From Escherichia phage AV124: a stretch of DNA of 64,000 bases. The number at the start of each line of letters is the position of its first letter. Position 1 is the stretch's first letter. The stretch lies in sequence record OR352954; one strand, written 5' to 3'. The notes below the pieces were generated by a model. It was not told the DNA's origin. It searched no databases and was given only the letters and a program-made list of their open reading frames with translations. Shown piece after piece: positions 3 to 62,348 of the stretch. The position numbers were made by a program, and so were the translations under genes.

Positions 3-194
3 AAAGATCTTGATCTTATCCATAACGTGGCCTTTTTGATTAGCGAGCTTGAAGAATATGTTGACGAACTAGATCTGAGCATCTATGATGACTACAGTGA
101 AATGAAATCAGCACAAAAAGAAGTGCTCAAATTATTGAAAAATCTCAGACGAAGGAGAGAACATGAAATTCAACGTAGACGATTTGGTCGCTAA
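3..194 (+). CDS. 3' end of an upstream gene (partial), unknown function
   Basis: Open frame from window edge to TAA at 192-194; acidic, helix-like translation; overlaps start of next gene. Confidence 0.3.
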   Translation, partial: KDLDLIHNVAFLISELEEYVDELDLSIYDDYSEMKSAQKEVLKLLKNLRRRREHEIQRRRFGR

Positions 195-1125
195 AAAACT
201 GGTAACCAAAAAGACTTACACCGAAGGCCCGTTCGCGGGTCTTTCTGTGCTGAAGTATAAGAACAATGTGTTCTGGGATAACCTGTGGCATACTGACCCA
301 CGACTGCTTGAGTGCCGTGGCATGGTTGTTGATGCAGAGGACAACGTTGTTATCTGGCCTTTCACGAAGATCTTCAACCGCTTCGAGAATAACACGGATG
401 TCCCTCAGGACCAGTTGGTATGCGTACCTCGTAAAATCAACGGCTTTATGGCAGCAATGAGTATTTACAATGGGGAGGTGATTGTATCTACCACAGGAAC
501 ACTTGATTCTGATTTTGCACAAATGGCAAAAGACAAAATCATTGGCTCTATGCCTGACGGAATGCTTGACTATTTCGTGAAGAACGCTGGACCTTGCACA
601 CTTATCTTTGAGATATGTGATGATAGCGACCCGCACATCGTCGCAGAAGAAGCAGGTGCTTATCTGATCGGTTGTCGTGTTCATTTAAGTGGTGGTATGC
701 TCCCAGAATGGGACCTTGATAAGGTCGCAAATCGTTATGGGTGGAAACGTGCTGGTTGGGACAACATGCTCTTCAGCGATGTTGTTAAGGCCTCTCAAAG
801 TGTTAACCATGAAGGTTTTGTTGTTCGCGATGTTGACACCAATGAGCTATTACTGAAAATCAAGTCTCCACATTACCTTGCGAAGAAATTCCTGATGCGC
901 GGGGGTGATAACAAGTGGGACATGATCTGGGATAACCCGAAAGAGGCCAAGAAGCGTATTGACGAAGAGTATTACGAGTTGCTTGACCATATCCGCGAGT
1001 ATTACTCTAAAGATGACTGGGCTGGGATGGACTCTCAAAAACGTCGTCAGGTTGTTGAAGATTATTTTGCGATTGAAGACCTCTTTGATCGCGATAGTCG
1101 TTTTTACGTTGGAGTTCAAAAATGA
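163..1125 (+). CDS. RNA ligase-like covalent nucleotidyltransferase (Rnl family)
   Basis: AGGAG RBS; motif I KINGF (KxNG), motif IV EGFVV, motif V LLKIK in correct order. Confidence 0.5.
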   Translation: MKFNVDDLVAKKLVTKKTYTEGPFAGLSVLKYKNNVFWDNLWHTDPRLLECRGMVVDAEDNVVIWPFTKIFNRFENNTDVPQDQLVCVPRKINGFMAAMSIYNGEVIVSTTGTLDSDFAQMAKDKIIGSMPDGMLDYFVKNAGPCTLIFEICDDSDPHIVAEEAGAYLIGCRVHLSGGMLPEWDLDKVANRYGWKRAGWDNMLFSDVVKASQSVNHEGFVVRDVDTNELLLKIKSPHYLAKKFLMRGGDNKWDMIWDNPKEAKKRIDEEYYELLDHIREYYSKDDWAGMDSQKRRQVVEDYFAIEDLFDRDSRFYVGVQK

Positions 1126-1475: not shown

Positions 1476-1883
1476 ATGGAAAAGACTCTGATTATCCTGC
1501 GCGGTGTGTCTGGTGCTGGTAAATCTACAGTTGCAGATATGCTAGCAGAATGTTTGTGGCCTATCTGTGAAGCAGATAAATTTCACTACACGGAAGATGG
1601 TGTTTACGACTGGAAACCTGAAAATATCCAGGCAGCGCATAAATGGTGCCAAGATCAAGTAAAGGAAATGATGGAATGGAAATTTCGTAAAATCATCTTG
1701 TCTAATACTTCTACCAGTGAAAAAGAACTGAAACCTTATCTTGATCTCGCTGCGGAGAATGGGTATCGTGTTATCAGCCTAGTGGTCGAGAACCGCCACG
1801 GGAATGATTCTATTCACAGTGTTCCGCAGGAAACTCGTGATGCTCAAGAGCGTCGTCTGCGTAACTCATTGAAATTACAGTAG
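1476..1883 (+). CDS. small P-loop kinase (polynucleotide-kinase-like)
   Basis: Walker A GVSGAGKST near N-terminus; RBS GAGGAG. Confidence 0.4.
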   Translation: MEKTLIILRGVSGAGKSTVADMLAECLWPICEADKFHYTEDGVYDWKPENIQAAHKWCQDQVKEMMEWKFRKIILSNTSTSEKELKPYLDLAAENGYRVISLVVENRHGNDSIHSVPQETRDAQERRLRNSLKLQ

Positions 1884-1893
1884 GAGGAAATAA

Positions 1894-2670
1894 TTGAGGC
1901 GTTTAATTGTTATTAGTGGCGCTGGTTTCTCTGCCGAGAGTGGTGTCCGTACATTCCGTACAGATACTGACTCCGGTAAAGCTCTGTGGGATGAATACGA
2001 CCTTGAGGAGGTTTGTAACATACACGCCTTCCGTGGTAACTTCTACCATAAAACGCACATGTTTTATAACAAGCGTCGTGCAGAGTTACCAACGGTACAT
2101 CCGAATGCGGCGCATCTTCGCGTGGCTGAGTGGTACAAACGTTATCCTGGGCAGGTTGTTAACATGACGACTAACGTTGATGACCTTCTGGAACGTGCGG
2201 GTGTCCCTAAAGAAGATACTCTTTACATACATGGTTATCTGAAAGAGATCCTTGTTAAAGATGCTTTCACCAAGAAGATAAAGGTTGTCGATATTGGTTA
2301 CGACCAAATTGATCCTGATGATTATGATTGGTGTAAACCAAACGTAATTTTCTTTGGTGAAAATGCCCCGGCGTATGGACCTATGTATGATACCTTAGAG
2401 TCCTTGACAAACCAAGATCTTGTAATTGTTGTTGGTTGCTCAAACACGGTAATCAACTTCAACTGGGAGTTGTTCCCTGCGGTTGTGCGGGGGACTAAAG
2501 TTGTTGTTGTCAATCCTGCTATTAGGTATGATGAACAAATGATGTATGAGAATGCGGGTGTTCTTGTATATCGTACCGGAGCTGTTGATGCCTTTAATAA
2601 TCCCGGCCTTATCAAGATAGTTGAGAATCACCTTGAAGGTAAGACACCATTGCAAAGCAAGGAGAAATAA
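1894..2670 (+). CDS. Sir2-family NAD-dependent deacylase / ADP-ribosyltransferase-like protein
   Basis: GAGFSAESGVRTFR (Sir2 GAGISxxSGIPxFR), NVDDL, IHG, PNVIFFGE motifs. Confidence 0.65.
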   Translation: MRRLIVISGAGFSAESGVRTFRTDTDSGKALWDEYDLEEVCNIHAFRGNFYHKTHMFYNKRRAELPTVHPNAAHLRVAEWYKRYPGQVVNMTTNVDDLLERAGVPKEDTLYIHGYLKEILVKDAFTKKIKVVDIGYDQIDPDDYDWCKPNVIFFGENAPAYGPMYDTLESLTNQDLVIVVGCSNTVINFNWELFPAVVRGTKVVVVNPAIRYDEQMMYENAGVLVYRTGAVDAFNNPGLIKIVENHLEGKTPLQSKEK

Positions 2671-4038: not shown

Positions 4039-4574
4039 ATGGATGTCTATTACTCAAGATGGAAAGACATCCTTAAAAGATGCTATTCTGAAAGCTTTCA
4101 TGCAAACAACCCTTCCTACATTGGATGCTCTGTTTGTGAAGAATGGAAAACATTTTCTATCTTTAAGGCTTGGTTAGTAGGTTCTGGATTTGATGGAACA
4201 CAGGTTATTGATAAAGACCTTTTGTTCAGGGGAACAAATTGTACAGTCCAGAAACTTGTGTTTTGATTGATTCAGAACTTAACTCTTTTTTAGCGATTGG
4301 CGGTAGAGGTTCTCACTTGCCCCACGGGGTTGGTTTGCAAAGCGGTAAATGTGTAAAACCTTATACAGCAAAGATTAAGGACTCTGTTAAGACAGAGTAT
4401 ATTGGAAGCTATGAGACAGCAATGGATGCTCATAAGGCTTGGCAAAATAGAAAATATCAGGCAGCATGTAATCTTTCTTTAAGGTATGATGACCCAATTA
4501 GAGCATACATTGTAAACGCAGCAAATAGGATTTTAGAAGATATAGAAAACAATAGACAGACAAAGGAGATATAA
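4039..4574 (+). pseudogene. frameshifted AP2-domain homing-endonuclease-like gene (paralog of 21765..22349)
   Basis: ORFs 4039..4266 and 4239..4574 align end-to-end with the intact paralog; single-nt frame change near 4236-4245. Confidence 0.5.
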
Positions 4575-5035
4575 TGGGATTTTATCGTAAAAAACCTGTA
4601 GAGGTTGAAGCACATAAGTTTGACGGATCGTCAACCAGCGCAGGGCAGATCCATAATTGGATGGAAACTGGTGTGTGGAAGGATTCCGAAATCCACACTC
4701 GTGATTGTGGTCGTACTGTAGAGATAAAAACCCCAGAGGGGGTGGTTGTAGCCTCTGCTGGGGATTATGTAATTAAAGGGGTGGCTGGAGAATTCTATCC
4801 TTGCAAATCAGAAATTTTCCATGCAACATATGACCCGCTGGAAGACACTGATCGGGAACCTGGGAACTACCCAGCTAAAGCAATCCGTAAGGGTGATGAG
4901 ATCATGTTTTGCGGAAAGGTTTATACCGTAACGAATACTGGTGCGATGGGGGAGGATGTTATCCTGACTCTCGGCGATGGTTCCCAAATCCCTGTGCGCC
5001 CGGATACTCAAATTATCGTAACAAAGGCACAGTAA
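4574..5035 (+). CDS. hypothetical protein
   Basis: ORF, ATGA overlap with upstream ORF, RBS AAGGAG. Confidence 0.5.
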   Translation: MGFYRKKPVEVEAHKFDGSSTSAGQIHNWMETGVWKDSEIHTRDCGRTVEIKTPEGVVVASAGDYVIKGVAGEFYPCKSEIFHATYDPLEDTDREPGNYPAKAIRKGDEIMFCGKVYTVTNTGAMGEDVILTLGDGSQIPVRPDTQIIVTKAQ

Positions 5036-5036
5036 A

Positions 5037-5387
5037 ATGATCTGGTATTGGCTGGCGCTACTAGGCGCATCATTTGTAACAGGAGGCGGCATTTATACCG
5101 CTTACAGATTCCGAAAAGATAAGCTGGATGATTTCTTTGACTGGGTTGCTGGAAAGGTTAAACGTCTGCTGATCATCTGGGTATTTGTTATGGGCCTTGT
5201 TACGCTGGCCCTTACTGTCCCATTATGGAATACTATGACTTGTCAGTTCGACGGCTGGGCCGCGAATACAGAGACCAGTTATTCATGGTACAAATCAACC
5301 TGCCTGTATAAAAGCAAGACAGGGGCATGGCTACCTTTAGGTATCAGTCGTGATCAACCGCAAGGAGATGGTGATGCATCAAATTAA
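5037..5387 (+). CDS. membrane protein
   Basis: Two hydrophobic helices in translation. Confidence 0.45.
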   Translation: MIWYWLALLGASFVTGGGIYTAYRFRKDKLDDFFDWVAGKVKRLLIIWVFVMGLVTLALTVPLWNTMTCQFDGWAANTETSYSWYKSTCLYKSKTGAWLPLGISRDQPQGDGDASN

Positions 5388-5628
5388 AGAAAATACTGTA
5401 GATTTTGAAGCGCATATCTACGATTCTGCGATGAACGACAACTACAGATGGTCAATTCGTCCAGATCCTGATCTGCCAGGTTCAGTTAACCTTTCTTACA
5501 ATGAGTTAGCTCATTATGACAACCGTTCTCGCCAAGGTTATGAACAGCGGGGTATGGTAGGTTTCGATAAAGAAACTTGGGAAAAAATTAAATACGCCAT
5601 CGATGGTGTTTTTGAAAAAACAATTTAG
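5374..5628 (+). CDS. hypothetical protein
   Basis: ORF; AAGGAG RBS before internal ATG. Confidence 0.4.
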   Translation: MHQIKENTVDFEAHIYDSAMNDNYRWSIRPDPDLPGSVNLSYNELAHYDNRSRQGYEQRGMVGFDKETWEKIKYAIDGVFEKTI

Positions 5629-5636
5629 GAGATTTA

Positions 5637-6314
5637 ATGAAAGAAGCTTATGATACTCTGAATGCTATGCTGCGCCCAACCTCTCTTGTTAAGTATGCGA
5701 AACATGTTGTAGATTGGAATTCTATCGCAGCCTCTGCAAAGGGTGAATTTACCCCATTGGAAAAGCAGTGGGAGTTTGTAGGAGAGGAGTTACAAGAAAC
5801 CGTTACAGCATTAATCGAAAATGACCGTAAGGAAGTTGTTGATGGAGCGTGTGATTTGTTTGTTGTGGCGTCGTATGCTTATTGGTTGAGTAATAACTAT
5901 TCGCTATCCTCAGATAAATATTTAACTTATAATCCTGACCTTAAGTTTTCTCCTGGTAAAGCTTTGGATGCTTTTGCGAATGATGACTATGAGGGGATGC
6001 TTAAATTGAGCACAGCTTTGTTGTTTGGTCTTGATATGCAATTGCATAAGAACATGCATAGCGTTCTGGAATCTAATGATTCTAAATATCCAACACTTAG
6101 TGAAATTCAGTCTTTGCATAAAGACCTTGACTTGGCAAAAGCCCTTGAGGCAGAATGCACCTGTATCGAACAGCGTAATGGTGGACGCTATGAAGGTGTT
6201 CATTTCTCCATTGTTGATGAGAATATGAAAGAAGAGCCACGTGTCGTATTCTTCGACAAAGGCGGTAAAATCATGAAGCCAGGGACTTTCAAAAAACCAA
6301 ACATTATTGTTTGA
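5637..6314 (+). CDS. hypothetical protein, possibly MazG-like NTP pyrophosphohydrolase
   Basis: EFVGEELQE ... DGACDLFVV resembles MazG EExxE/D motifs; weak. Confidence 0.3.
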   Translation: MKEAYDTLNAMLRPTSLVKYAKHVVDWNSIAASAKGEFTPLEKQWEFVGEELQETVTALIENDRKEVVDGACDLFVVASYAYWLSNNYSLSSDKYLTYNPDLKFSPGKALDAFANDDYEGMLKLSTALLFGLDMQLHKNMHSVLESNDSKYPTLSEIQSLHKDLDLAKALEAECTCIEQRNGGRYEGVHFSIVDENMKEEPRVVFFDKGGKIMKPGTFKKPNIIV

Positions 6315-8322: not shown

Positions 8323-8517
8323 ATGATCCGCACAAAAATTCTTATCGCAGCATTGCTGCTATCTTCTCCGGTATTCGCGACTGTAAACACTCTTGATTTG
8401 GTTGATGAATACACCGACGGAAGTTCTAAAGTCTGCATCTACAGCGACGGTAATCGCACAGAATCTGTTCTGAAAGAAGGTGCTGGTTCTTGTCCAAGTA
8501 AGAAAACATTTCATTGA
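8323..8517 (+). CDS. small secreted protein
   Basis: N-terminal signal peptide MIRTKILIAALLLSSPVFA. Confidence 0.45.
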   Translation: MIRTKILIAALLLSSPVFATVNTLDLVDEYTDGSSKVCIYSDGNRTESVLKEGAGSCPSKKTFH

Positions 8518-8521
8518 GGCA

Positions 8522-9031
8522 ATGATGCGAGTAACTGATAAATACGTATTCTTCTTCACATACCGGGATATGTTCAGTAATCACTACCGCCAAGTTATTC
8601 CTATTCGTTGTGGTGGTTACGAGTTTTTTACTGTAGAACATTACATGATGTTCCAGAAGGCAATGCTCTTCGATGACAAAGAAATTGCTTCCCGCATCGC
8701 TACGGTTGATAACCCGAATGAGGCCAAAGCTCTTGGTCGTCAGGTAAAAGGTTTCGACAACAGCGTCTGGGAAGAGAATAGAATGGATATTGTGACTTCA
8801 GGCCTTGTATTGAAAATGAAGGCCAACAGGTCTGTTCTGGAAGCGGCGCTTGGGCATCGGGATGCTGGTCGTAAGTTTGTGGAAGCCTCCCCTTATGATG
8901 CCATCTGGGGTGTTAAATTAAACGAATATGACACACGTATCGATGACCCAACCAACTGGCGGGGTTTGAATCTTCTCGGTGAGTGCTGGGAACGAGCTAT
9001 TGATATTGTTGTTGCTGCAACGTGGAGGTGA
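8522..9031 (+). CDS. NADAR / YbiA-family protein (predicted ADP-ribose N-glycosidase fold)
   Basis: FSNH, TVEHYMMFQKAMLF, PNEAKALGR, DAIWG motifs colinear with YbiA family. Confidence 0.6.
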   Translation: MMRVTDKYVFFFTYRDMFSNHYRQVIPIRCGGYEFFTVEHYMMFQKAMLFDDKEIASRIATVDNPNEAKALGRQVKGFDNSVWEENRMDIVTSGLVLKMKANRSVLEAALGHRDAGRKFVEASPYDAIWGVKLNEYDTRIDDPTNWRGLNLLGECWERAIDIVVAATWR

Positions 9032-31442: not shown

Positions 31443-31944
31443 ATGAGATCCATTGTTCCGGTTAAGGGCTTGGAGGGATTATACTCTGTTAACTTTTTCG
31501 GAGCTGTGTATTCTCATCGGTCTGAAAAATTTCTGAAACCAGAAAGAATGCCAGACGGATACCTACGTTATACACTAATTGATGAGAGGGGCAGAAAAAT
31601 ACGTAGGCAGGCCCATATCTTTACCTTGGAGTCCTACCCTGGAGGTATTTATCAAGAAGAGGTCAACCATAAGGACCACGTCAGGGATAACAATTGGATT
31701 GGAAACTTAGAGTGGGTGTAATGTAGAGCACGGGAAATCAAGAAGCTTCATAATTACATTTCCCGATGGCAGAAAAGAGAAGGTATTCAACCTCAGTAAG
31801 TTTTGCAGGGACAATGATTTACACTTGGGGGCAATGCATGAAATGGCAACGGGAAGGATTAGAGAAGGAAGATCCCTAAGAACTCACCACAAAGGTTATT
31901 TCTGTGAATATGACCAGGACTATACAGAATCAGGAGAATGGTAA
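31443..31944 (+). pseudogene. disrupted HNH homing endonuclease (NUMOD4/HNH N-terminal ORF plus out-of-frame C-terminal segment)
   Basis: 31443..31721 encodes GLEGLYSVN...VNHKDHVRDNNWIGNLEWV then stop; a +1 frame stays open ~73 codons to 31944. Confidence 0.45.
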
Positions 31945-33200
31945 TGCAAGATAAGAAGATCTATTTGGTTGGTGGAGCCGTAAGGGACTCCTTGCTCGGT
32001 AGGCCCGTGCATGACAAGGACTATGTTTGTGTCGGGTACACACACGAAGAGATGATCGCCGCCGGATTTACACAGGTTGGTGCAAATTTTGCAGTATACC
32101 TTCATCCTGAAACCAAAGAAGAATACGCACTGGCCCGTACTGAGCGCAAAACGGGTGAGGGCCATACTGGCTTTGAGACCTTCTTCAGCCCGGATGTAAC
32201 TCTGGAAGAGGATTTATCGCGTCGTGACCTGACGATCAATGCGATGGCTAAAGACATGGAAACAGGATTTATCATTGATCCGTTCAACGGTATGCATGAC
32301 CTGTGCAACAGGACTCTTCGTCATACCACTTCGGCATTCATGGATGACCCATTACGTATCCTGCGACTTTTCCGATTCAAGGCCCAGCTGGGTGATGGTT
32401 GGACTGTCGATCATGAGACATATAGTCTCGCTTACAACAACCGTTACCGCCTGGCAGAAATTAGCCCAGAACGCAAATGGAAGGAGATGGAGAAAGCTCT
32501 TAATTCCAACAACTTTATGAGTTATGCTTACGAAATGGCCGTGCTTGGTGAACTCCCAGAGCTAGATGCCCTTCATGGTGTAGAGCAACCACCTGAGCAT
32601 CATCCAGAGGGTGATGCCTTCATCCACACCCTGATGTGCCTGGAGCAGGCAGACAAAACCTTTTGCTCTCCTCAGGTGAAATTTGCGGTGCTGTGCCATG
32701 ACTTTGGAAAGGCGATCACTTTCCGTAAGTACGGTAATCTCCTCGGTCATGAAGAAGCTGGTCTTGATCCTGTGCGGACGCTGTGCAGTCGAATTCGAGT
32801 TCCTAACGAATTCAGGGATATTGCACTGTACGTGACAGAGCACCATACTCGTGTGCATTGCATTTTGGGCCGTGGGAATAATAAAGGAATCAAGCCACGT
32901 TCCATGATGAAGCTTTTCGAAGCCGCAGGTAACGTGGCTAGTCAGAAGACACAGGACAAGGTGTTTGCCTTAGCAGACGCTTGTTTCTGCGATGCCCGTG
33001 GTCGTGGTGCCACGCACGCAGATAAGGAATACCCGCAAGGAAAAATTCTCCTTGATGCTTTCGATGCGGTTGTAAATACGGACAGCAAGGCGGTATCTTC
33101 AGCAATGCTGGAGAAAGGAAAAAGCGGCAAGGAGATCGGTGAGGCGATCCGTGTTGCACGTATTGATGCAATTCGTAATGTCCTTAAGGAGAGATCATGA
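31938..33200 (+). CDS. CCA tRNA nucleotidyltransferase (Pol-beta head + HD domain)
   Basis: N-terminal GGAVRDSLLGRPVHDKDYV motif; C-terminal HD-type region. Confidence 0.75.
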   Translation: MVMQDKKIYLVGGAVRDSLLGRPVHDKDYVCVGYTHEEMIAAGFTQVGANFAVYLHPETKEEYALARTERKTGEGHTGFETFFSPDVTLEEDLSRRDLTINAMAKDMETGFIIDPFNGMHDLCNRTLRHTTSAFMDDPLRILRLFRFKAQLGDGWTVDHETYSLAYNNRYRLAEISPERKWKEMEKALNSNNFMSYAYEMAVLGELPELDALHGVEQPPEHHPEGDAFIHTLMCLEQADKTFCSPQVKFAVLCHDFGKAITFRKYGNLLGHEEAGLDPVRTLCSRIRVPNEFRDIALYVTEHHTRVHCILGRGNNKGIKPRSMMKLFEAAGNVASQKTQDKVFALADACFCDARGRGATHADKEYPQGKILLDAFDAVVNTDSKAVSSAMLEKGKSGKEIGEAIRVARIDAIRNVLKERS

Positions 33201-35261: not shown

Positions 35262-36332
35262 ATGGAAAAGTTTGAAGTGATGCGATGCTATTCCGGTAGC
35301 CTCGCTTATGGCACAAATCTTCCAACTAGTGATGTGGATATTCGGGGTCTGTTCTGCGCCCCACCTAAATTCATCCGCACGCCGTTCTTTAACATCAAAG
35401 AGCAAACCTTGGAAGATGAAGAGGATGGGAAGATTTATGAGTTGACAAACTTCATGAGATTGTTTTCAGAGATGAACCCCAACATCATTGAACTGATGTT
35501 TGTCGATGACAAAGACATTTTACAAACCTCTGAAGTTTATGAATATCTTCGCACAATGGCCCCGGCACTGCTGACCAGTAAGGTAGCGTTCTCCTTCTCT
35601 GGGTATGCGATGGCACAGCTTAAACGTATTCGCGGTCATGATAAGTGGATCAGCAATCCGCAGCCTGAAGAAAAGCCTACGCAAAAAGAGTTCTTCCGAT
35701 TAGTTCACAACTATAGTGAGAACGAATTCCTTGCCGGGGCAATTAAGCACGATCGCTTCATGGAAGCAATGAACAATCTCAACGATATGTGTATCCTTGT
35801 ACCTTATGGGAACGATATCTATGGGGTGATGGAAAACTTCAGTAGCTCAGGGATGTTCAATGCTAACGGTTCAATTCGCCATGTTGACTATCAGCAACTT
35901 TCTGACTCTGACAAGCGGAGAAAACCTGTCTTTATTGTCAAATATTTGGCAGAGGAACACAAACAGGCCAAAGAGAAGCATCGTAACTATTGGACATGGA
36001 AACAGAACCGAAATGAAGTTCGTCACCAGCTCGAAGTTGATTTTGGTTATGACACGAAACATGCGATGCACCTTGTGCGCCTGATGCGTATGGCAGAAGA
36101 GATTCTTTCTGATGGGAAGGTCCTAGTGAAGCGTCCTGATGCTCAGGAACTTCTCGACATCCGGGCAGGTAAGTGGACTCTTGACGAACTGCTCTCTTGG
36201 GCTGATGAGAAGGACCGTTATATTCGTGAGGATCTGTACAAAAAGACACAGCTTCCTAAAATGGCGGATCTTGACCTGTTTGCTAGGGTTCTCATGACGG
36301 CTCAGGATATGTGTTGGAGTAAACTGGTATGA
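35262..36332 (+). CDS. Pol-beta-superfamily nucleotidyltransferase (RlaP-like)
   Basis: N-terminal YSGSLAYGTNLPTSDVDIRGLF (GS...D.D motif). Confidence 0.45.
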   Translation: MEKFEVMRCYSGSLAYGTNLPTSDVDIRGLFCAPPKFIRTPFFNIKEQTLEDEEDGKIYELTNFMRLFSEMNPNIIELMFVDDKDILQTSEVYEYLRTMAPALLTSKVAFSFSGYAMAQLKRIRGHDKWISNPQPEEKPTQKEFFRLVHNYSENEFLAGAIKHDRFMEAMNNLNDMCILVPYGNDIYGVMENFSSSGMFNANGSIRHVDYQQLSDSDKRRKPVFIVKYLAEEHKQAKEKHRNYWTWKQNRNEVRHQLEVDFGYDTKHAMHLVRLMRMAEEILSDGKVLVKRPDAQELLDIRAGKWTLDELLSWADEKDRYIREDLYKKTQLPKMADLDLFARVLMTAQDMCWSKLV

Positions 36333-56056: not shown

Positions 56057-56450
56057 CCAAGTATTTCTCCAAATGAGTGAGTACAACCCCTTGGGCATAC
56101 TCTTGAGATGCATCATTGTGGTGAAGAACAGCCAGATCACATCCAAGTTTGTGCAAACTCCTCTCGAATGGAGACAAGTGTGTCATCATAACTTCGACCA
56201 GACTAAGCTCTTCTTCTGTGATGTGGAGGGGATCATCCGTGAAATCCCTGGAGATGAGAATCTCTCTCTCACCTCCTTCTCCGTGACCATAGACCTCGAC
56301 AATCCTCCTGTTACAGAAAATTTCGTACTGATAGCCGTTCCAATCTTGACCGTCTTGGGCTTCAAAGTTCACAATGAGGCAACAACCAAGCCCCAACAAG
56401 AGTACCTGGAAATCCAAATTGTGAACAATTTTTTTATTTAAAGTGTTCAT
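56040..56450 (-). CDS. hypothetical protein
   Basis: ORF; co-oriented with neighbours. Confidence 0.4.
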   Translation of the reverse strand: MNTLNKKIVHNLDFQVLLLGLGCCLIVNFEAQDGQDWNGYQYEIFCNRRIVEVYGHGEGGEREILISRDFTDDPLHITEEELSLVEVMMTHLSPFERSLHKLGCDLAVLHHNDASQEYAQGVVLTHLEKYLDAKKE

Positions 56451-57873
56451 CTAAGTCCACAGCTTTTCCAAATGGTGGAATCCAACCCTTGCGCCCACCG
56501 CAGATAACCCAGAGAGTGTTGTACTTACGCCCCCAGCTTGAGCCACGATGTCTCAGGTCCTCTATGTAACCATCTGTGAAGATTATAACCTCTTTTGCCT
56601 TAGGAATAAACTCATCGATGTACTCAAAAGCACATGCAGCAGTTGTCCCACCAGTCGATGTAACTCTGTAATCCAGAATTTCCTTTATGTTATCCTGTGT
56701 GTACACGTTGACGTTGCCAACTTGGGTTGACCAACAGAACAATGTGATACGGAAACATTGGTACAGGGTGCTCAAAGCGATTATCTCATTGAAGATACGT
56801 GTCATTGTTTGACGAGAGATAGAACCTGAAACGTCAAAACCGATTACAATATCAACAGTCTCTGTTCTTTTTCTGCCAGGCATAACCATGAACTGTTTCT
56901 TAGTTAGAGCGCCGTGATCACGAAGGACTTTTGTCATTCCTCCTGATCGACGACCTAAGACCCGATAAGTACGGTCTGATTTAACACGAGAAATCATTCG
57001 CTGCTTAATGATTTGCAGGTAATTAATCTTCGGTTTACCTTTTTGTGCGATTAATTCTCTGGCTTCTTTTGGCCCTTCACCACCTGCGGCTTTCATAGCA
57101 GCGTCAATCATGTCCTCAGACCAAGACATATCCTCATCTTCCTGATCAGCAGACTTCTGTGGGTGTGGGTCCGTATACCCCAGGATGTCAAGGTCTTTAT
57201 CATAATCCCCTATGTGCGCTCCCAGCGGCTTACCTTCACCGTCACCAATCTCTTCCGGTAGTAGAGCATAAATCTCTTCAGCCGTTTTTCCCTCATATTG
57301 GTAATCGCAATAACAGTAAGCAAGGAAACCAAATTCTTTTGACTTATCAAACACTTGTCGATGAGTGAACCATTTCAAACTCTCGGCTTTCTGGCCCAAC
57401 TCCTTGACTAGGTCAGTATTGATATAGTGATCAGCGGCGATGTTGAAACGTTTGCGATCAAATGTTTTCCCACGAGACATGTGGTCGTTGGTGACATGGC
57501 GGACCTCATGCATCATGATGAATACAATTTCTTTCATGGTCTTTTGACGATAAAATACATTGATGTACTCTTTGTAATCATCTTTTTGCTGTTGTGTCAT
57601 CATCGGATGCTTGTCAATACGAGCAAAGACTTTTTTCTTGCGATCAGCAGGCATACCCATAATGAACTCTGGGTTAAAGTATAGATTGCGATGATCAGTT
57701 GCTGCGGTTGGAAGCCATGCACAGTCAACTATCAGCGGCATACCGCTTAATAATGTCCCATAGAATGGTCGATTAGTAAGTAAAGCGATGCGGGCAGACT
57801 GAACTCTCTTCAGTGCTTCATCAGCCAGTTCCATAATGCTTTCTTTTTCATCAGTATACATTCTTATCTCCAA
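56434..57873 (-). CDS. HExxH metallopeptidase-like + von Willebrand factor A domain protein
   Basis: HEVRH motif in N-terminal half; vWA MIDAS VIGFDVSGSIS in C-terminal half. Confidence 0.55.
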   Translation of the reverse strand: MEIRMYTDEKESIMELADEALKRVQSARIALLTNRPFYGTLLSGMPLIVDCAWLPTAATDHRNLYFNPEFIMGMPADRKKKVFARIDKHPMMTQQQKDDYKEYINVFYRQKTMKEIVFIMMHEVRHVTNDHMSRGKTFDRKRFNIAADHYINTDLVKELGQKAESLKWFTHRQVFDKSKEFGFLAYCYCDYQYEGKTAEEIYALLPEEIGDGEGKPLGAHIGDYDKDLDILGYTDPHPQKSADQEDEDMSWSEDMIDAAMKAAGGEGPKEARELIAQKGKPKINYLQIIKQRMISRVKSDRTYRVLGRRSGGMTKVLRDHGALTKKQFMVMPGRKRTETVDIVIGFDVSGSISRQTMTRIFNEIIALSTLYQCFRITLFCWSTQVGNVNVYTQDNIKEILDYRVTSTGGTTAACAFEYIDEFIPKAKEVIIFTDGYIEDLRHRGSSWGRKYNTLWVICGGRKGWIPPFGKAVDLDEHFK

Positions 57874-57910: not shown

Positions 57911-58171
57911 TTAATTCATCACCCTTTGCAATGCAATTTGGGGTAAAAATTCATCTATCCCCTCAACCCTGAAACCCCACGCTAATTGTGGACCAGGCGC
58001 TCCCGGAAGGTGAGGAACAGCAAACAAGACGATCCCATCAATAGCTCCGCGAATCGCGTTCTCTGTGAAAGTCTCTACCAGATCCCCGAAATTAAGACCC
58101 GGCCTGAAGCCAGCATTCAGCATTTTTTGCTCTGGCGCGGATGCAGGCCTGCCCAAGATATCTTCGTACAT
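57911..58171 (-). CDS. hypothetical protein
   Basis: ORF. Confidence 0.4.
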   Translation of the reverse strand: MYEDILGRPASAPEQKMLNAGFRPGLNFGDLVETFTENAIRGAIDGIVLFAVPHLPGAPGPQLAWGFRVEGIDEFLPQIALQRVMN

Positions 58172-59037
58172 TACACCACCTTGTTGAGCATTGCTGCAAC
58201 TTTTGGCAGGCTCAGGCCCGTCTGGATCATCAGTTGGGTCATCGCAGTTTCCATTTTCTTGGAGACAATGATGAAATTATCTTTGGCAAAGCCAATGTTC
58301 AGATCCAGAATCAGAATAGATTTCGGTTCTTCAGTTAATTTTTCACCAGATAAGGCACAGGTGTTGCGAATGTATCGTGCCTTAAATTGCGAATAGGTGA
58401 CCGATACAGACATTCCAGCCTCGTGGAAGGTGTTGCAGTAACGGGCATACGCCAATGCAACAGAGACGTCCTCAGGCAACTTCTGGGCCTCTTTCTGAGC
58501 ACTTGTCTCTTCCGCCGCAGGTTTTTGGTTGTGAACATGTTCTTCGGCATTATCCATAGCGTTCTGCATTGTCTCTTCAGTATTCATTTCGTTCTCCTGT
58601 TGTGGGATATATTTGGTTTTCAGTTTTTCAAGGTGGTCTTTGGACATGTTCAACATCATGGCCTTTACTATTTCGCGATCTAAAGGATCTTGAATCAGTA
58701 TAGATGTTGTCTTGTCAACTAAACGGTCCTTAAGTTGGTTTGCGCGAAGCATAACCACACAGACGTTTCCCCGGACATACCCTTTCGAGTCATCGATTCT
58801 CTCTATAGACGGATACCTTGGGTTAGCTTCCTCACCATCATTCGCGATGTTGGTACTGAAAGGTAGCCCCGTGTAATCACAAGAGCCGTGGCCCAAAAGC
58901 TTGAATCCGAGCATACGCATATCTTGCATTGTTAAATCACAGTCAAGGCCCCGTTTTCGAGCATTCAACTTCTTATGCTTCAAACGATTCCTCAACTTTT
59001 CCACTTCTTCAGGTGTAAACTCTTGTAATACAGACAT
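58171..59037 (-). CDS. HNH-like endonuclease-related protein
   Basis: CDYTGLPF...PSIERID...GYVRGNVCVV..ANQLK with a second degenerate copy. Confidence 0.4.
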   Translation of the reverse strand: MSVLQEFTPEEVEKLRNRLKHKKLNARKRGLDCDLTMQDMRMLGFKLLGHGSCDYTGLPFSTNIANDGEEANPRYPSIERIDDSKGYVRGNVCVVMLRANQLKDRLVDKTTSILIQDPLDREIVKAMMLNMSKDHLEKLKTKYIPQQENEMNTEETMQNAMDNAEEHVHNQKPAAEETSAQKEAQKLPEDVSVALAYARYCNTFHEAGMSVSVTYSQFKARYIRNTCALSGEKLTEEPKSILILDLNIGFAKDNFIIVSKKMETAMTQLMIQTGLSLPKVAAMLNKVV

Positions 59038-59072
59038 TTCTAACTCCTTGGGTCTTGCCCGTTCTTAGTAAG

Positions 59073-59140
59073 GTGATTATCACCATTCGGAAAAGGGTTG
59101 TCAACCCTTGATTTCTAAAAAGTGGCGGTGTATCTTTGTC
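59073..59140. promoter_or_regulatory. divergent promoter region with palindromes GGTGAT-T-ATCACC and AAGGGTTG-T-CAACCCTT
   Basis: Two perfect palindromes plus TTGATT-N17-TATCTT between divergent blocks. Confidence 0.4.
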
Positions 59141-59170
59141 CATTATTCGTATAAGAGGGTAAGTGAGATT

Positions 59171-60178
59171 ATGAGCAAAGTAGATATTAATGTAAAACCA
59201 AACGAGGCTTGGAATGAGGAGCGAGATTTCATAGATAAGTTGTTACAAGGGAAGCAGGCTGCTCAAGAGAGATTTCTTTCAACTTTTGAGAGGGACAGAC
59301 ATGTTGACAATCCCATCACCCGCTTTATCGAGTATCTTCGTGGGGTGGGGGATCAGAATCCTGTGTTGGAAATTGTTTTGTCTTGCCTTCATAAACTTCC
59401 CACACATGGCGGACCTTTTTATTGGGAATGGTTTGATGGTAATGATGAGGATGTGATGGATTTCGCTTTTGATATGAATCGGAAGACTACCTCTCATTCC
59501 CTATCCAGTATGGTGGCAGAGCATAGAACACATCGCACAGGCGGAAATCATCCTTGGTCAGATCGTTTAACAGAGACAGTGGAACTTTGTTTTCATGGTC
59601 ATGGGAATAGTGAGGCGTTTAAATGCTCGTTCTGGGATTTTTCACACCGTACCCGCAATTTTCTTTATCATTTGAAGCCTCTTCTTGAGGATATGTCGAA
59701 TGGGGATGACCTTCGTTTAGTTGTAGAGTATGCGAGTCATCAAAGAAATGCCTCGATATCGTGGAAGAATCTCCCTGCTGGTCGATTTGAACTTCTGCAT
59801 GTGAGGCTGGTTTGTGGTGACTTGGTTCTTTACTCTGACTATCTTGAGCCTTCGGCGTTCGATCGTGTTTGTAGCCAACTGAACCATTCTGTTATCAACA
59901 TCATGAACAGAAAGATCGCTAATAAGGCACGTAAAGCAATGTTCGTTTGTTCTCCGAAAGAAACGATGTTCCACTTGGAATATGACCCCAAGCTACAGAG
60001 CATGATGGAGGGGGACTCCCCGACAGAAGAAGAACTCATGATGATGTCTATTGCAGGATATGAAGATGAGTTTTGGCTTGACAACGTAAAATCTTTCGAT
60101 AGACTGAACATAAAACCCTTTAACCTAGAGGAAGCTGTCAAATGGTATCAACAGACAAGAGTTGTATTCAAGCTTTAA
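59171..60178 (+). CDS. hypothetical protein
   Basis: 336-aa ORF from internal ATG of track ORF 59108. Confidence 0.5.
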   Translation: MSKVDINVKPNEAWNEERDFIDKLLQGKQAAQERFLSTFERDRHVDNPITRFIEYLRGVGDQNPVLEIVLSCLHKLPTHGGPFYWEWFDGNDEDVMDFAFDMNRKTTSHSLSSMVAEHRTHRTGGNHPWSDRLTETVELCFHGHGNSEAFKCSFWDFSHRTRNFLYHLKPLLEDMSNGDDLRLVVEYASHQRNASISWKNLPAGRFELLHVRLVCGDLVLYSDYLEPSAFDRVCSQLNHSVINIMNRKIANKARKAMFVCSPKETMFHLEYDPKLQSMMEGDSPTEEELMMMSIAGYEDEFWLDNVKSFDRLNIKPFNLEEAVKWYQQTRVVFKL

Positions 60179-60651
60179 GTCCAGCACAAGAACTTGCTTT
60201 GGCAATTAAAATTGCAGCAGAAGGCCACCTGAATCAGAAAGATAAGGGTGGTAACCCGTACATCCTTCATCCACTGAAGGTAATGCACTACCTGAAGACT
60301 GATGATTTTCAGCTCATGGCTATCGCTGCCCTACATGATGTTATCGAAGATACTGACGTTATGGCGGCTGATCTCGTGATGATGGGATTCTCCAACCGTG
60401 TTGTCTGTGCAGTGGTCCTACTGACGAAGACACCAAACCAGTCACCAGAAGAATATTTTCAGGGTATTGCAAGCAACTACGACGCGGTTCGTGTGAAGCT
60501 TGCAGACCTGCGTCACAACTCTGACGTTCGTCGCCTGAAAGGTCTGACAGATAAGGATTTGTTGCGTGTTCGTAAGTATCACGACATGTATCTTCGTTTG
60601 ACAAAGATGAAAGAACACCACGAAGCGATCAACGTCTTATCTAAACTATAA
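60142..60651 (+). CDS. HD-domain (p)ppGpp/alarmone hydrolase (small alarmone hydrolase-like)
   Basis: HPLKV...IAALHDVIEDT...KLADLRHN motifs of RelA/SpoT hydrolase domain. Confidence 0.65.
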   Translation: MVSTDKSCIQALSPAQELALAIKIAAEGHLNQKDKGGNPYILHPLKVMHYLKTDDFQLMAIAALHDVIEDTDVMAADLVMMGFSNRVVCAVVLLTKTPNQSPEEYFQGIASNYDAVRVKLADLRHNSDVRRLKGLTDKDLLRVRKYHDMYLRLTKMKEHHEAINVLSKL

Positions 60652-60710
60652 AGGAGTGCCACTGATGACAATTAAATCAAGTGATGAATTTGAACTGAGG
60701 GGGATAAAAA

Positions 60711-61088
60711 ATGCCTGACTGGAAAACTACTCTTGACATAAGTGATATATGGTCTAAAAGAAATGGTGAATGCGGCAGAGAAGACTGGACAGACAAGACG
60801 GTGCATGAGCTTGCTAAGGAGATAGCTCGTCGTCTTGAACGGAAATTCCCTCGCGAGTCAAACTATGACAACTGGGATAATGGCTGCGATTATGAGCTGT
60901 GTGATATAATTGGCTATTTCCGGGATGTTTCAACATACCCAGATTGGTTAGCCTCTATTGCGGAATGTGAGAATGAGGGGTATGATGCCGACCCAATTCG
61001 CCATTATACACCCTTGCGGGAATTCAACGACATCATGAAAGATTTTTATGATTGGTGTGATGAAAATCGTGTTTGGGTGGATAAATAA
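60711..61088 (+). CDS. hypothetical protein
   Basis: ORF. Confidence 0.45.
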   Translation: MPDWKTTLDISDIWSKRNGECGREDWTDKTVHELAKEIARRLERKFPRESNYDNWDNGCDYELCDIIGYFRDVSTYPDWLASIAECENEGYDADPIRHYTPLREFNDIMKDFYDWCDENRVWVDK

Positions 61089-61151
61089 TCATTGCAATGG
61101 GGGAGGATCAAATGTATCCTGCTCCCGAATTTCATTTACAGGAGACAAATA

Positions 61152-62348
61152 ATGTCAAGTCGCAACATCTTTTCTGGTAACTGGATCACTTTGCGTGATC
61201 TCCCGCCGCTCGTACAATTTTGCCAGCGTCACAAACGTTCACTGATGATCTTCGGCGGGGCAGGTATTGGTAAAAGTCAGGCTGTGAAGCAAATTGCGGA
61301 TTCTCTTTTCGGGCCTGGTGATAACTTGGTAGACTTCCGCTTGGCTGATAAAGATAACACCGACCTCACCGGGGTGCAGATTCCATACACCGATGACAAT
61401 GGTGTTACTCGCACAGTGTACGCCTTGCCGGATTTCTGGCCTCGTGATCCTAACTGGAAAGGTATTGTGTTCCTTGACGAGCTTCTCCACGCCGAGCCTT
61501 ACCTTCAGAAACTGGCATTCCAAATCATGCTGGACCGTCGAATCGGGACCTACCAGTTCCCTGAAGGGGCTGTACTGGTTGCTGCTGGTAACCGTGCTGG
61601 GGATGGTACTGCCGTGACTGCACTGGAAGCTCCTTTGGCTAACCGTATGATGCTGGTAGAGCTTACCTATAGCGCATCGGTGTTCATCGAAGACTATGCC
61701 ATGCAGAACGGTATTCATTCGTCAATCATTGGTTTTCTGTCTCGTAAGAACAGTGCTATTGAAAACTATGAAGAAATGCTGGATATCGGGTGTCCTTCTT
61801 TCGCCACACCGCGTACTTTAACTTACGCCAGTGATGTATTGTACGATTACGATGCTAATTTGCTGCCTGCCAACCTAGCTAAGGTTGCTCTTCAGGGCTT
61901 CATTGGCACACCTTTAATGGCTGAACTGTGGGCATACCACACTAAGATTCGTAATATGGTCCCGATCGAAGACGTTATGAACGGTACTGCCCAAGACCCC
62001 GGAGACCTTCCATCCGATAGTTTGTGGATTTTAGGTTCCGAAGGTGCTATTTGGTTGCGTAAGGCTATTGCAGATACCAACTACACCGATGATCAGATTA
62101 TTGAATTCTCTGGTAACTTCCTACAGTATCTTTATGATCACTTTATGGACCAGAACCGAGACTTCGTAAGCTCTATTTTCCTGTCGTTCATTAAGGAAAA
62201 TGCATTCGGTAAGGCGCTGTTGACCACTGCAAGCAACCGTGACAAGCTTCCTGCACGTTTGTTGAAGGCAAAGCCCATCATAATGAAAATTATGGCAGAC
62301 TTCCAGGTCAACTACGCTGAAGATATTAAGCTTATCGAAGGAAAATAA
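61152..62348 (+). CDS. MoxR-like AAA+ ATPase
   Basis: Walker A GGAGIGKS, Walker B VFLDELLHAEP, sensor VAAGNRA; AGGAGA RBS. Confidence 0.55.
   Translation: MSSRNIFSGNWITLRDLPPLVQFCQRHKRSLMIFGGAGIGKSQAVKQIADSLFGPGDNLVDFRLADKDNTDLTGVQIPYTDDNGVTRTVYALPDFWPRDPNWKGIVFLDELLHAEPYLQKLAFQIMLDRRIGTYQFPEGAVLVAAGNRAGDGTAVTALEAPLANRMMLVELTYSASVFIEDYAMQNGIHSSIIGFLSRKNSAIENYEEMLDIGCPSFATPRTLTYASDVLYDYDANLLPANLAKVALQGFIGTPLMAELWAYHTKIRNMVPIEDVMNGTAQDPGDLPSDSLWILGSEGAIWLRKAIADTNYTDDQIIEFSGNFLQYLYDHFMDQNRDFVSSIFLSFIKENAFGKALLTTASNRDKLPARLLKAKPIIMKIMADFQVNYAEDIKLIEGK

Follow-up and report, generated by a model that had tools for sequence, protein, structure and literature searches.

Within a window of 64,000 nucleotides from Escherichia phage AV124 (sequence record OR352954), the whole stretch of DNA analysed here, positions 60142-60651 of the plus strand encode a 169-aa protein that a preliminary description, made from the sequence alone, had taken for a stand-alone alarmone hydrolase with an HD domain (small alarmone hydrolase, SAH). 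Our analysis supports this assignment and makes it quite probable that the protein is an adenosine 3'-pyrophosphohydrolase of the Aph1/PbcSpo type, with which a virulent Vequintavirinae-like myovirus would undo what toxic small alarmone synthetases (toxSAS) produce. This reading is already known, in that an identical protein has been deposited, an ortholog with 89% identity has been tested and the counter-defence idea has been published. The additions made here are the prediction of an adenosine 3'-pyrophosphate as the substrate, the link between PbcSpo and Aph1, and the failure to find a self-toxin partner in the window.

The gene and its product

The following features were assigned to the gene and the sequence just upstream of it (Aph1 is the (p)ppApp hydrolase of Bacteroides caccae, to which we return below):

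60078..60105, plus strand: TTGACA-16-TAGACT, a sigma-70-like promoter match (10/12) within the upstream open reading frame (ORF), 37 nt before the SAH ATG
60128..60134, plus strand: Shine-Dalgarno-like GAGGAAG, 7 nt 5' of the SAH ATG, as read from the sequence
60142..60651, plus strand: coding sequence of the stand-alone alarmone hydrolase with an HD domain (169 aa; SAH, predicted Aph1 type), with an ATG start and the stop codon included
60241..60249, plus strand: codons of D34-K35-G36, the base-recognition position, equivalent to D24-K25-A26 of Aph1 and R-K-S of Rel
60325..60354, plus strand: AALHDVIEDT (residues 62-71), the HD metal-binding and ED catalytic motif, placed by the alignments
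60496..60534, plus strand: KLADLRHNSDVRR (residues 119-131), with the metal ligand D122, the ribose-contacting N126 and the Aph-specific D128 and R131, placed by alignment to 7smg and to Rel (8acu and 7oiw)
60574..60579, plus strand: K145-Y146, equivalent to K133-Y134 of Aph1, the Tyr being the pyrophosphate-contacting signature residue (121/121 homologs)

Both the ORF and the three motifs quoted in the preliminary description were found verbatim in the translation (HPLKV at residues 43-47, AALHDVIEDT at residues 62-71 and KLADLRHN at residues 119-126), and the opposite strand has many stops in the register of the gene. A 100% identical protein is present in NCBI under the label 'putative metal dependent phosphohydrolase [Escherichia phage AV124]'. 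The sigma-70-like match within the upstream ORF might, as a consensus match alone, give the SAH a transcription of its own.

The protein matched PHROG 990 ('metal-dependent phosphohydrolase') with an E value of 1.5e-67, and the N-terminal hydrolase region of TIGR00691 (spoT_relA) with an E value of 2e-14. The latter match covers positions 1-84 of the 687 in the model and stops there, and the 169 residues hold a single HD domain; a synthetase domain is lacking, just as originally described, and so are TGS and ACT domains. The Pfam profile HD_4 (PF13328), which is present in more distant SAH homologs, covers residues 21-88 with a score of 21.0 bits, below its gathering cut-off of 27.2. This sub-threshold score reflects the sensitivity of the profile and does not contradict homology; it also explains why some of the relatives are annotated as 'hypothetical protein'.

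By far the top match among PDB sequences (phmmer) was the '(p)ppApp hydrolase' 7smg, i.e. Aph1 of B. caccae (E 3.6e-27, residues 18-159), followed by Rel, RelA and SpoT (1e-9 to 1e-7), where the matches to Rel/SpoT are limited to the hydrolase domains, and by Mesh1 and other SAHs (1e-6 to 1e-2, with Mesh1 at about 1e-5 to 1e-6). An AlphaFold2 (AF2) model built from an alignment of 27 sequences proved all-helical, with a mean predicted local distance difference test score (pLDDT) of 93.3 and a predicted template modelling score (pTM) of 0.88. When this model was compared with known structures by Foldseek, the four chains of 7smg came out on top (E ~1.5e-10, template modelling score to target 0.89-0.92, root-mean-square deviation 1.4-2.5 Å), and MESH1 (E ~1e-6), the Pseudomonas aeruginosa SAH, Thermus thermophilus Rel, RelH and SpoT ranked after them, the probability being 1.00 for these matches and 7smg alike. 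Taken together, the motif matches, the PHROG, TIGR and PDB scores, which lie well outside what chance would produce, and the fold therefore identify the protein as a single-domain HD hydrolase belonging to the RSH (RelA/SpoT homolog) type, i.e. a stand-alone SAH, for which a 3'-pyrophosphohydrolase activity is predicted. The RelA/SpoT hydrolase identity proposed at the outset is thus borne out by TIGR00691, by 7smg and by the AF2/Foldseek matches.

Active-site residues and the likely substrate

The SAH was aligned with Aph1 and with gp220 of Salmonella phage PVP-SE1 (MAFFT), with 26 diverse homologs, and with all 120 retrieved homologs (55-100% identity). Loss of the HD motif residues on alignment had been named in the preliminary description as a possible refutation; the metal-binding and catalytic set is in fact kept, H29, H43, H65-D66, D70, D122 and N126 being invariant across 121 sequences of the family and E69 present in 118 of the 121.

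The (p)ppApp-specific Aph enzymes are set apart from (p)ppGpp hydrolases by a signature of six residues (D24, R96, D116, R119, K133 and Y134), five of which, with R96 as the exception, are located near the active site (Ahmad et al. 2023, PMC10083569). These five Aph1 residues, D24, D116, R119, K133 and Y134, correspond to D34, D128, R131, K145 and Y146 of the SAH and show no variation among the aligned homologs (119/119 for D34, 121/121 for each of the other four). The residues that bind guanine in TtRel, R43, R44 and S45 (Ahmad et al. 2023, PMC10083569), are replaced: at the guanine-binding position the SAH has D-K-G versus R-K-S and R-K-N in the Rel enzymes of Bacillus subtilis and Staphylococcus aureus, respectively. 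The two-residue 'SD' insertion that bears D128 in the SAH is absent from Rel, and the position of R131 is taken by T in Rel. With respect to activity, Aph1 has no detectable action on ppGpp, and its D24R/R119A double mutant gains ppGpp hydrolysis (Ahmad et al. 2023, PMC10083569); all 12 of the 12 purified Aph1 homologs cut ppApp, and only two of them had a modest ppGpp activity (Ahmad et al. 2023). Based on the Aph signature, the replaced guanine-binding residues and the activity of the Aph homologs, an adenosine 3'-pyrophosphohydrolase is predicted rather than a ppGpp hydrolase. As judged from the sequence, the likely substrates would be (p)ppApp and, by extension, 3'-pyrophosphorylated tRNA-CCA, and not ppGpp. 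The preliminary description had left the substrate as '(p)ppGpp or (pp)pApp'; the adenosine option is favoured by the Aph1-type signature and the guanosine option is disfavoured.

An alternative reading would make the SAH primarily a (p)ppGpp hydrolase that spares the infected cell the stringent response and thereby keeps transcription and translation running for phage production. In fact, (p)ppGpp is the classic substrate of the RSH hydrolase fold, and the records of Raoultella phage Ro1, BIS47 and KP12 annotate a guanosine-3',5'-bis(diphosphate) 3'-pyrophosphohydrolase. Moreover, ATfaRel, an enzyme of the PbcSpo subfamily, countered a build-up of 32P-ppGpp in vivo, and a 2026 preprint reports phage restriction by the stringent response. 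Against this reading, the guanine binders R43/R44/S45 of TtRel appear as D-K-G in the SAH, the Aph-specific D128 and R131 are invariant, Aph1 needs both D24R and R119A to act on ppGpp, 10 of the 12 Aph homologs left ppGpp uncut, and the nearest solved structure is that of a ppApp-specific enzyme. We consider a primary role in (p)ppGpp hydrolysis unlikely, and the label 'guanosine-3',5'-bis(diphosphate) pyrophosphohydrolase' carried by some records is probably wrong.

A survey of phage genomes placed the locus and its signature in a broader context. Over 3.4 kb around the SAH the DNA is 89-93% identical to that of Klebsiella, Raoultella and Proteus myoviruses (the KB57/Ro1/Mydo group), and more distant DNA relatives of the locus are found in Salmonella phage PVP-SE1, Cronobacter phage GAP31 and Erwinia phages, all of them Vequintavirinae-like. 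Homologs of the protein are present in 338 phage records, foremost among them Aeromonas, Pseudomonas, Streptococcus, Klebsiella and Vibrio phages, and form 3739 protein clusters overall (at E≤1e-5). The labels in related records range from 'metal-dependent phosphohydrolase', 'GTP pyrophosphokinase' and 'putative (p)ppGpp synthase' to 'hypothetical protein' and guanosine-3',5'-bis(diphosphate) 3'-pyrophosphohydrolase.

The Aph signature is kept in the homologs of rV5-like, Streptococcus pneumoniae, T4-like Aeromonas and Pasteurella phages (S. pneumoniae and Pasteurella prophage homologs are among the experimentally validated Aph1 immunity proteins) and partly lost in Stenotrophomonas and Streptomyces phage proteins. 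The homologs of Pseudomonas phage vB_PaeM_B55 (Pakpunavirus) and Vibrio phage 184E37.3a keep the HD/ED residues and have neither D34 nor the D-x-x-R segment. By their sequences, these Pakpunavirus and Vibrio phage homologs probably represent a class of other specificity, and they rule out the Aph signature as a feature general to all phage SAHs. A phage-genome paper of 2025 considered the specificity of the Pakpunavirus enzyme not predictable, which agrees with the missing Aph signature in this enzyme.

Two further observations on the homologs may be recorded. Three metagenomic SAH homologs (P0076, P0113 and P0116; 54-62% identical) share an additional, conserved N-terminal stretch of ~60 aa, which the phage protein lacks. 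In four Klebsiella phage records (OY978796.1, OY757067.1, OY978784.1 and OY979426.1) the annotated features at the SAH match are unrelated to it (major head protein, Rz-like spanin, nicotinamide phosphoribosyl transferase, Sir2), which suggests that the annotation coordinates of these records are offset from their sequences.

Neutralization of toxSAS by phage hydrolases

Two stand-alone phage SAHs, those of the Salmonella phages PVP-SE1 (PbcSpo) and SSU5 (PaSpo), have been tested by Jimmy et al. (2020, PNAS 117:10500, PMC7229694). Each of them neutralizes the whole set of five validated toxSAS, i.e. CapRel, PhRel2, FaRel2, PhRel and FaRel, upon co-expression in E. coli (PMC7229694, Table 1), and a counter-defence role of phage SAHs was already proposed in the same study (PMC7229694). 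The sole homolog of the AV124 protein in the PVP-SE1 genome is gp220 (YP_004894027), with 89.3% identity, 100% coverage and equal length. As the sole homolog in this genome, gp220 is, on strong grounds, the PVP-SE1 SAH that was tested by Jimmy et al. Since the latter was assigned to PbcSpo in that study, the AV124 protein would, by its 89% identity to gp220, belong to the same subfamily. The suggestion of the preliminary description that such an enzyme counters toxic-synthetase defences is thus in line with the neutralization of toxSAS by an ortholog.

In the mechanism that we propose, the HD/ED site would bind Mn2+ or Mg2+ and hydrolyse the pyrophosphate on the 3'-OH of adenosine, converting (p)ppApp to ADP/ATP and probably, by extension, acting in the same way on the 3'-pyrophosphorylated A76 of tRNA-CCA. 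It would thereby undo the products of toxSAS, both (pp)pApp of the FaRel-type enzymes and the tRNA pyrophosphorylation of the CapRel-, PhRel-, PhRel2- and FaRel2-type enzymes, which hosts and prophages deploy as abortive-infection defences. CapRel is a demonstrated anti-phage defence of this kind that works in E. coli, and later work showed that four of the five tested toxSAS families do not produce alarmones and pyrophosphorylate tRNA instead. As to the tRNA branch, ATfaRel and MESH1 restore the aminoacylation of FaRel2-pyrophosphorylated tRNA in vitro, and the SSU5 SAH has been reported to erase a toxin-installed tRNA modification.

Because the SAH would act on the product without contacting the toxin, one enzyme could serve against many toxSAS families. 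Moreover, what the two kinds of toxSAS produce is in either case an adenosine 3'-pyrophosphate, so that an adenosine-specific hydrolase is expected to neutralize all five toxins, and this expectation matches what was reported for the PVP-SE1 SAH. The same consideration would explain how a single enzyme can neutralize both the makers of (pp)pApp and the toxins that pyrophosphorylate A76 of tRNA. It appears that the phage SAH of the PbcSpo type from the 2020 study and the Aph1 family reported in 2023 represent one type of enzyme.

Several points weigh against this interpretation. The signature residue R96 is not kept, being Gly108 in both the SAH and PVP-SE1 gp220 (among the 121 homologs, 94 have G, 13 have R and 8 have A at this position). 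The SAH may also have some activity on ppGpp, since two of the 12 Aph homologs cut it modestly and ATfaRel lowered 32P-ppGpp in vivo. The de-pyrophosphorylation of tRNA in vitro refers to ATfaRel and MESH1, and not to PVP-SE1 gp220 or Aph1. Finally, a search of the literature yielded no paper in which a phage SAH beats a toxSAS defence during infection. We infer both the substrate preference of the AV124 SAH and its counter-defence role in real infection, and continue to regard an adenosine 3'-pyrophosphohydrolase directed at toxSAS products as the probable identity of this protein.

Abortive-infection defences of the toxSAS kind, CapRel among them, are widespread, and a hydrolase that degrades their products would be a generic means of escape that requires no recognition of the toxin. 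The presence of an active Aph-type SAH in therapeutic phages of Klebsiella, E. coli and Salmonella would help to predict their host range on strains with toxSAS. A better annotation for the gene would be adenosine 3'-pyrophosphohydrolase / small alarmone hydrolase, replacing its current labels.

Genetic surroundings and comparison with known systems

The genes that surround the SAH are listed in their order along the window:

56437-57873, minus strand: DUF2201_N/VWA protein (metallopeptidase-like part and VWA domain)
58171-59037, minus strand: divergent gene for a 288-aa protein that matches the PHROG entries 'HNH endonuclease' (2.7e-94), 'Srd anti-sigma factor' (1.6e-22) and 'decoy of host sigma70' (1.5e-17)
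59171..60178, plus strand: upstream co-oriented gene for a 335-aa protein, with an AAGAGGG ribosome-binding site and a 3' end that shares 37 nt with the beginning of the SAH gene
60652-61148 region: single ORF for a 125-aa protein, lying between the genes for the SAH and the ATPase
61149-62345, plus strand: MoxR-like ATPase (PHROG 1297; no Pfam match at E≤0.01)

The SAH is the second gene of a rightward string that starts after the divergent intergenic region 59038-59170, within which the leftward gene has a strong sigma-70-like site. The product of this leftward gene is labelled in related records either as an HNH endonuclease or as an anti-sigma factor, and the two labels are in conflict. 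The overlapping gene at 59171-60178 is probably co-transcribed or translationally coupled with the SAH. Its 335-aa product matches PHROG 10920 ('thymidylate kinase') at 1e-139, and its synteny with the SAH is kept across the relatives. Despite this label, no Pfam match, no PDB sequence match and no P-loop could be identified in the protein, and its family (15 clusters with identities of 59% or more) is confined to this group of phages. The name 'thymidylate kinase' of PHROG and RefSeq is therefore unsupported. We also considered this protein as a hidden partner or kinase of the SAH, and dropped the idea for the same lack of a Pfam, PDB or P-loop match and for an unreliable AF2 model (pLDDT 52.5).

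On the downstream side, the segment 60652-61148 (compared with 4507-6040 of the PVP-SE1 locus L001) is a mosaic hot-spot among the relatives, where the megablast alignment falls into three pieces with ~86% coverage. The DUF2201_N/VWA protein and the MoxR-like ATPase, encoded on opposite strands and flanking the SAH operon, resemble a MoxR-VWA pair that the locus has split.

A further alternative holds that the SAH confers an immunity akin to that of type IV antitoxins against a (p)ppApp synthetase toxin of the phage itself, as does Aph1 against the MuF-fused Apk2. This possibility is raised by the context of Aph1 and its homologs in prophages of S. pneumoniae, Pasteurella and Mannheimia, which adjoin MuF-Apk2 and IapK genes and encode proteins 39-49% identical to the SAH. 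We searched for such a toxin within the window, i.e. 64 kb of a genome of ~145 kb, by sequence, the upstream 335-aa protein with its poorly predicted fold included. A Pfam scan of the 73 window ORFs of at least 100 aa, with all 42 families hit inspected, found no RelA_SpoT or MuF domain. A six-frame regular-expression search of the window for the synthetase motifs of RSH enzymes gave no cluster and one isolated YKSLH. Using as a query the Apk2 toxin domain from Streptococcus phage phiARI0285-1, which matches the solved 'SaSAS' synthetase 8vx3, we obtained by tblastn only chance matches in the window (best E = 2). In a phage collection the same query found 131 positive records, among them one Salmonella and one Escherichia record, and not one from a Klebsiella, Raoultella, Cronobacter, Erwinia or Proteus phage. 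The SAH locus is present in 49 phage genomes of these same five host genera.

An own-toxin immunity cassette was dropped after the Pfam, six-frame motif and Apk2 tblastn searches had given nothing. A toxSAS toxin-antitoxin module was rejected because a RelA_SpoT domain is missing from all 73 ORFs, the neighbours being proteins of PHROG 10920 and PHROG 6318, and a MuF-Apk2/IapK/Aph1 cassette because neither Pfam nor tblastn located a MuF-fused Apk2 domain in the window. With these searches empty in the window and in the related phage records, and with the PVP-SE1 enzyme itself termed 'stand-alone' by Jimmy et al. (PMC7229694), we give hardly any credence to immunity against an own toxin. With regard to the query phage phiARI0285-1, the 545-aa MuF-Apk2 ORF is annotated merely as a 212-aa C-terminal fragment, and a GOLLD non-coding RNA is annotated just past the terminase genes (L010 6653-7001), near the MuF-Apk2/IapK/Aph1 cassette.

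Elsewhere in the window the following genes are related to RNA ends or to NAD and ADP-ribose:

163-1122, plus strand: T4 Rnl1-type RNA ligase (PF09511, 1.3e-12)
1476-1880, plus strand: AAA_33 P-loop kinase (2.3e-9), two genes 3' of the RNA ligase
1894-2667, plus strand: Sir2-family protein (3.3e-22)
8480-9028, plus strand: NADAR-domain protein (1.1e-34)
31938-33197, plus strand: CCA-adding-type nucleotidyltransferase (PolyA_pol 1.4e-20) with a C-terminal HD domain (HD 1e-4)
35262-36329, plus strand: RlaP 'RNA repair pathway' nucleotidyltransferase (8.7e-15)

In addition, a cREC_REC cyclic-phosphate-processing domain (1.7e-17) was found in one of the first 28 ORFs of the window, and ARAGORN identified no tRNA genes in the window (1-64000). 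The Sir2 and NADAR proteins have NAD/ADP-ribose functions and may perhaps be relevant to NAD-depletion defences. The set resembling RNA-end repair (the RNA ligase, the AAA_33 kinase, the cREC_REC protein, the CCA-adding-type nucleotidyltransferase and RlaP) could act as a tRNA-repair counter-defence toolkit, which fits the theme of tRNA protection loosely. It is a tentative and rather doubtful extension that the SAH is mainly a 'de-pyrophosphorylase' of the tRNA 3' end and one arm of such a tRNA/RNA-end repair toolkit in the window. If this were true, the phage would resist several tRNA-targeting abortive-infection systems, including toxSAS of the CapRel type, and many 'Aph' enzymes would be erasers of adenosine 3'-pyrophosphates, RNA ends included.

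The same RNA-end-repair genes can be cited for a different view, according to which the SAH acts mainly on a non-alarmone substrate, e.g. NADPH, other 3'-phosphorylated nucleotides or RNA ends, or has a promiscuous metabolic role. MESH1 is a NADPH phosphatase that also binds 3'-phosphoadenosine 5'-phosphosulfate (PDB 5vxa and 9chy), and an orphan bacterial SAH with metabolic promiscuity has been described (mBio 2022, PMC9765508). However, the match to MESH1 is much weaker than that to Aph1, in sequence (E 1e-5 to 1e-6 versus 3.6e-27) as well as in fold, and the PVP-SE1 SAH, for which the 89% identical gp220 is the sole candidate, neutralizes toxSAS. We therefore hold a mainly non-alarmone function to be very improbable, and return to the adenosine 3'-pyrophosphohydrolase for the comparison with known systems.

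The hydrolase domains of Rel/SpoT, as well as Mesh1, PaSAH and RelH, share the HD fold and the catalytic motifs with the SAH (E 1e-9 to 1e-2). Unlike the enzyme predicted here, they cut (p)ppGpp, have R-R/K-S in place of D-K-G, and lack the N-x-D-x-x-R segment. The PaSpo SAH of Salmonella phage SSU5, compared by description, is likewise stand-alone and phage-borne, although of the PaSpo rather than the PbcSpo subfamily. ATfaRel, from the faRel operon of Cellulomonas marina, falls, like the PVP-SE1 enzyme, into the PbcSpo subfamily (PMC7229694) and acts as a type IV antitoxin that neutralizes all toxSAS by catalysis. It is part of a three-gene toxin-antitoxin operon together with its toxin, whereas the phage SAH has no synthetase partner, and the two are likened by description.

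Aph1 (7smg; Ahmad et al. 2023, PNAS 120:e2213771120) shares with the SAH 40% identity, the HD/ED residues and five of the six signature residues, D24 and R119 included. The C-terminal region that defines the Aph1 family (Y90-E143, without the HD motif) is matched as well, up to residue 147 of the 7smg chain and residue 159 of the query. The SAH differs from Aph1 by Gly in place of R96 and by ~17 extra N-terminal and ~20 extra C-terminal residues. In contrast to the prophage-borne Aph1, it belongs to a virulent myovirus and has no MuF-Apk2 toxin or Tis1/IapK immunity gene next to it.

The closest counterpart, PVP-SE1 gp220, is identical to the SAH in all catalytic and signature residues. The differences amount to 18 substitutions, most of them within residues 1-13 or at the C-terminal end, and to another host genus. 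In the PVP-SE1 genome, also of the Vequintavirinae, gp220 is located in the same way, i.e. 3' of a PHROG-10920 gene that it overlaps and 5' of a MoxR-like ATPase, from which it is separated by four small genes (gp221-224), compared with the one gene of 125 aa in the window.

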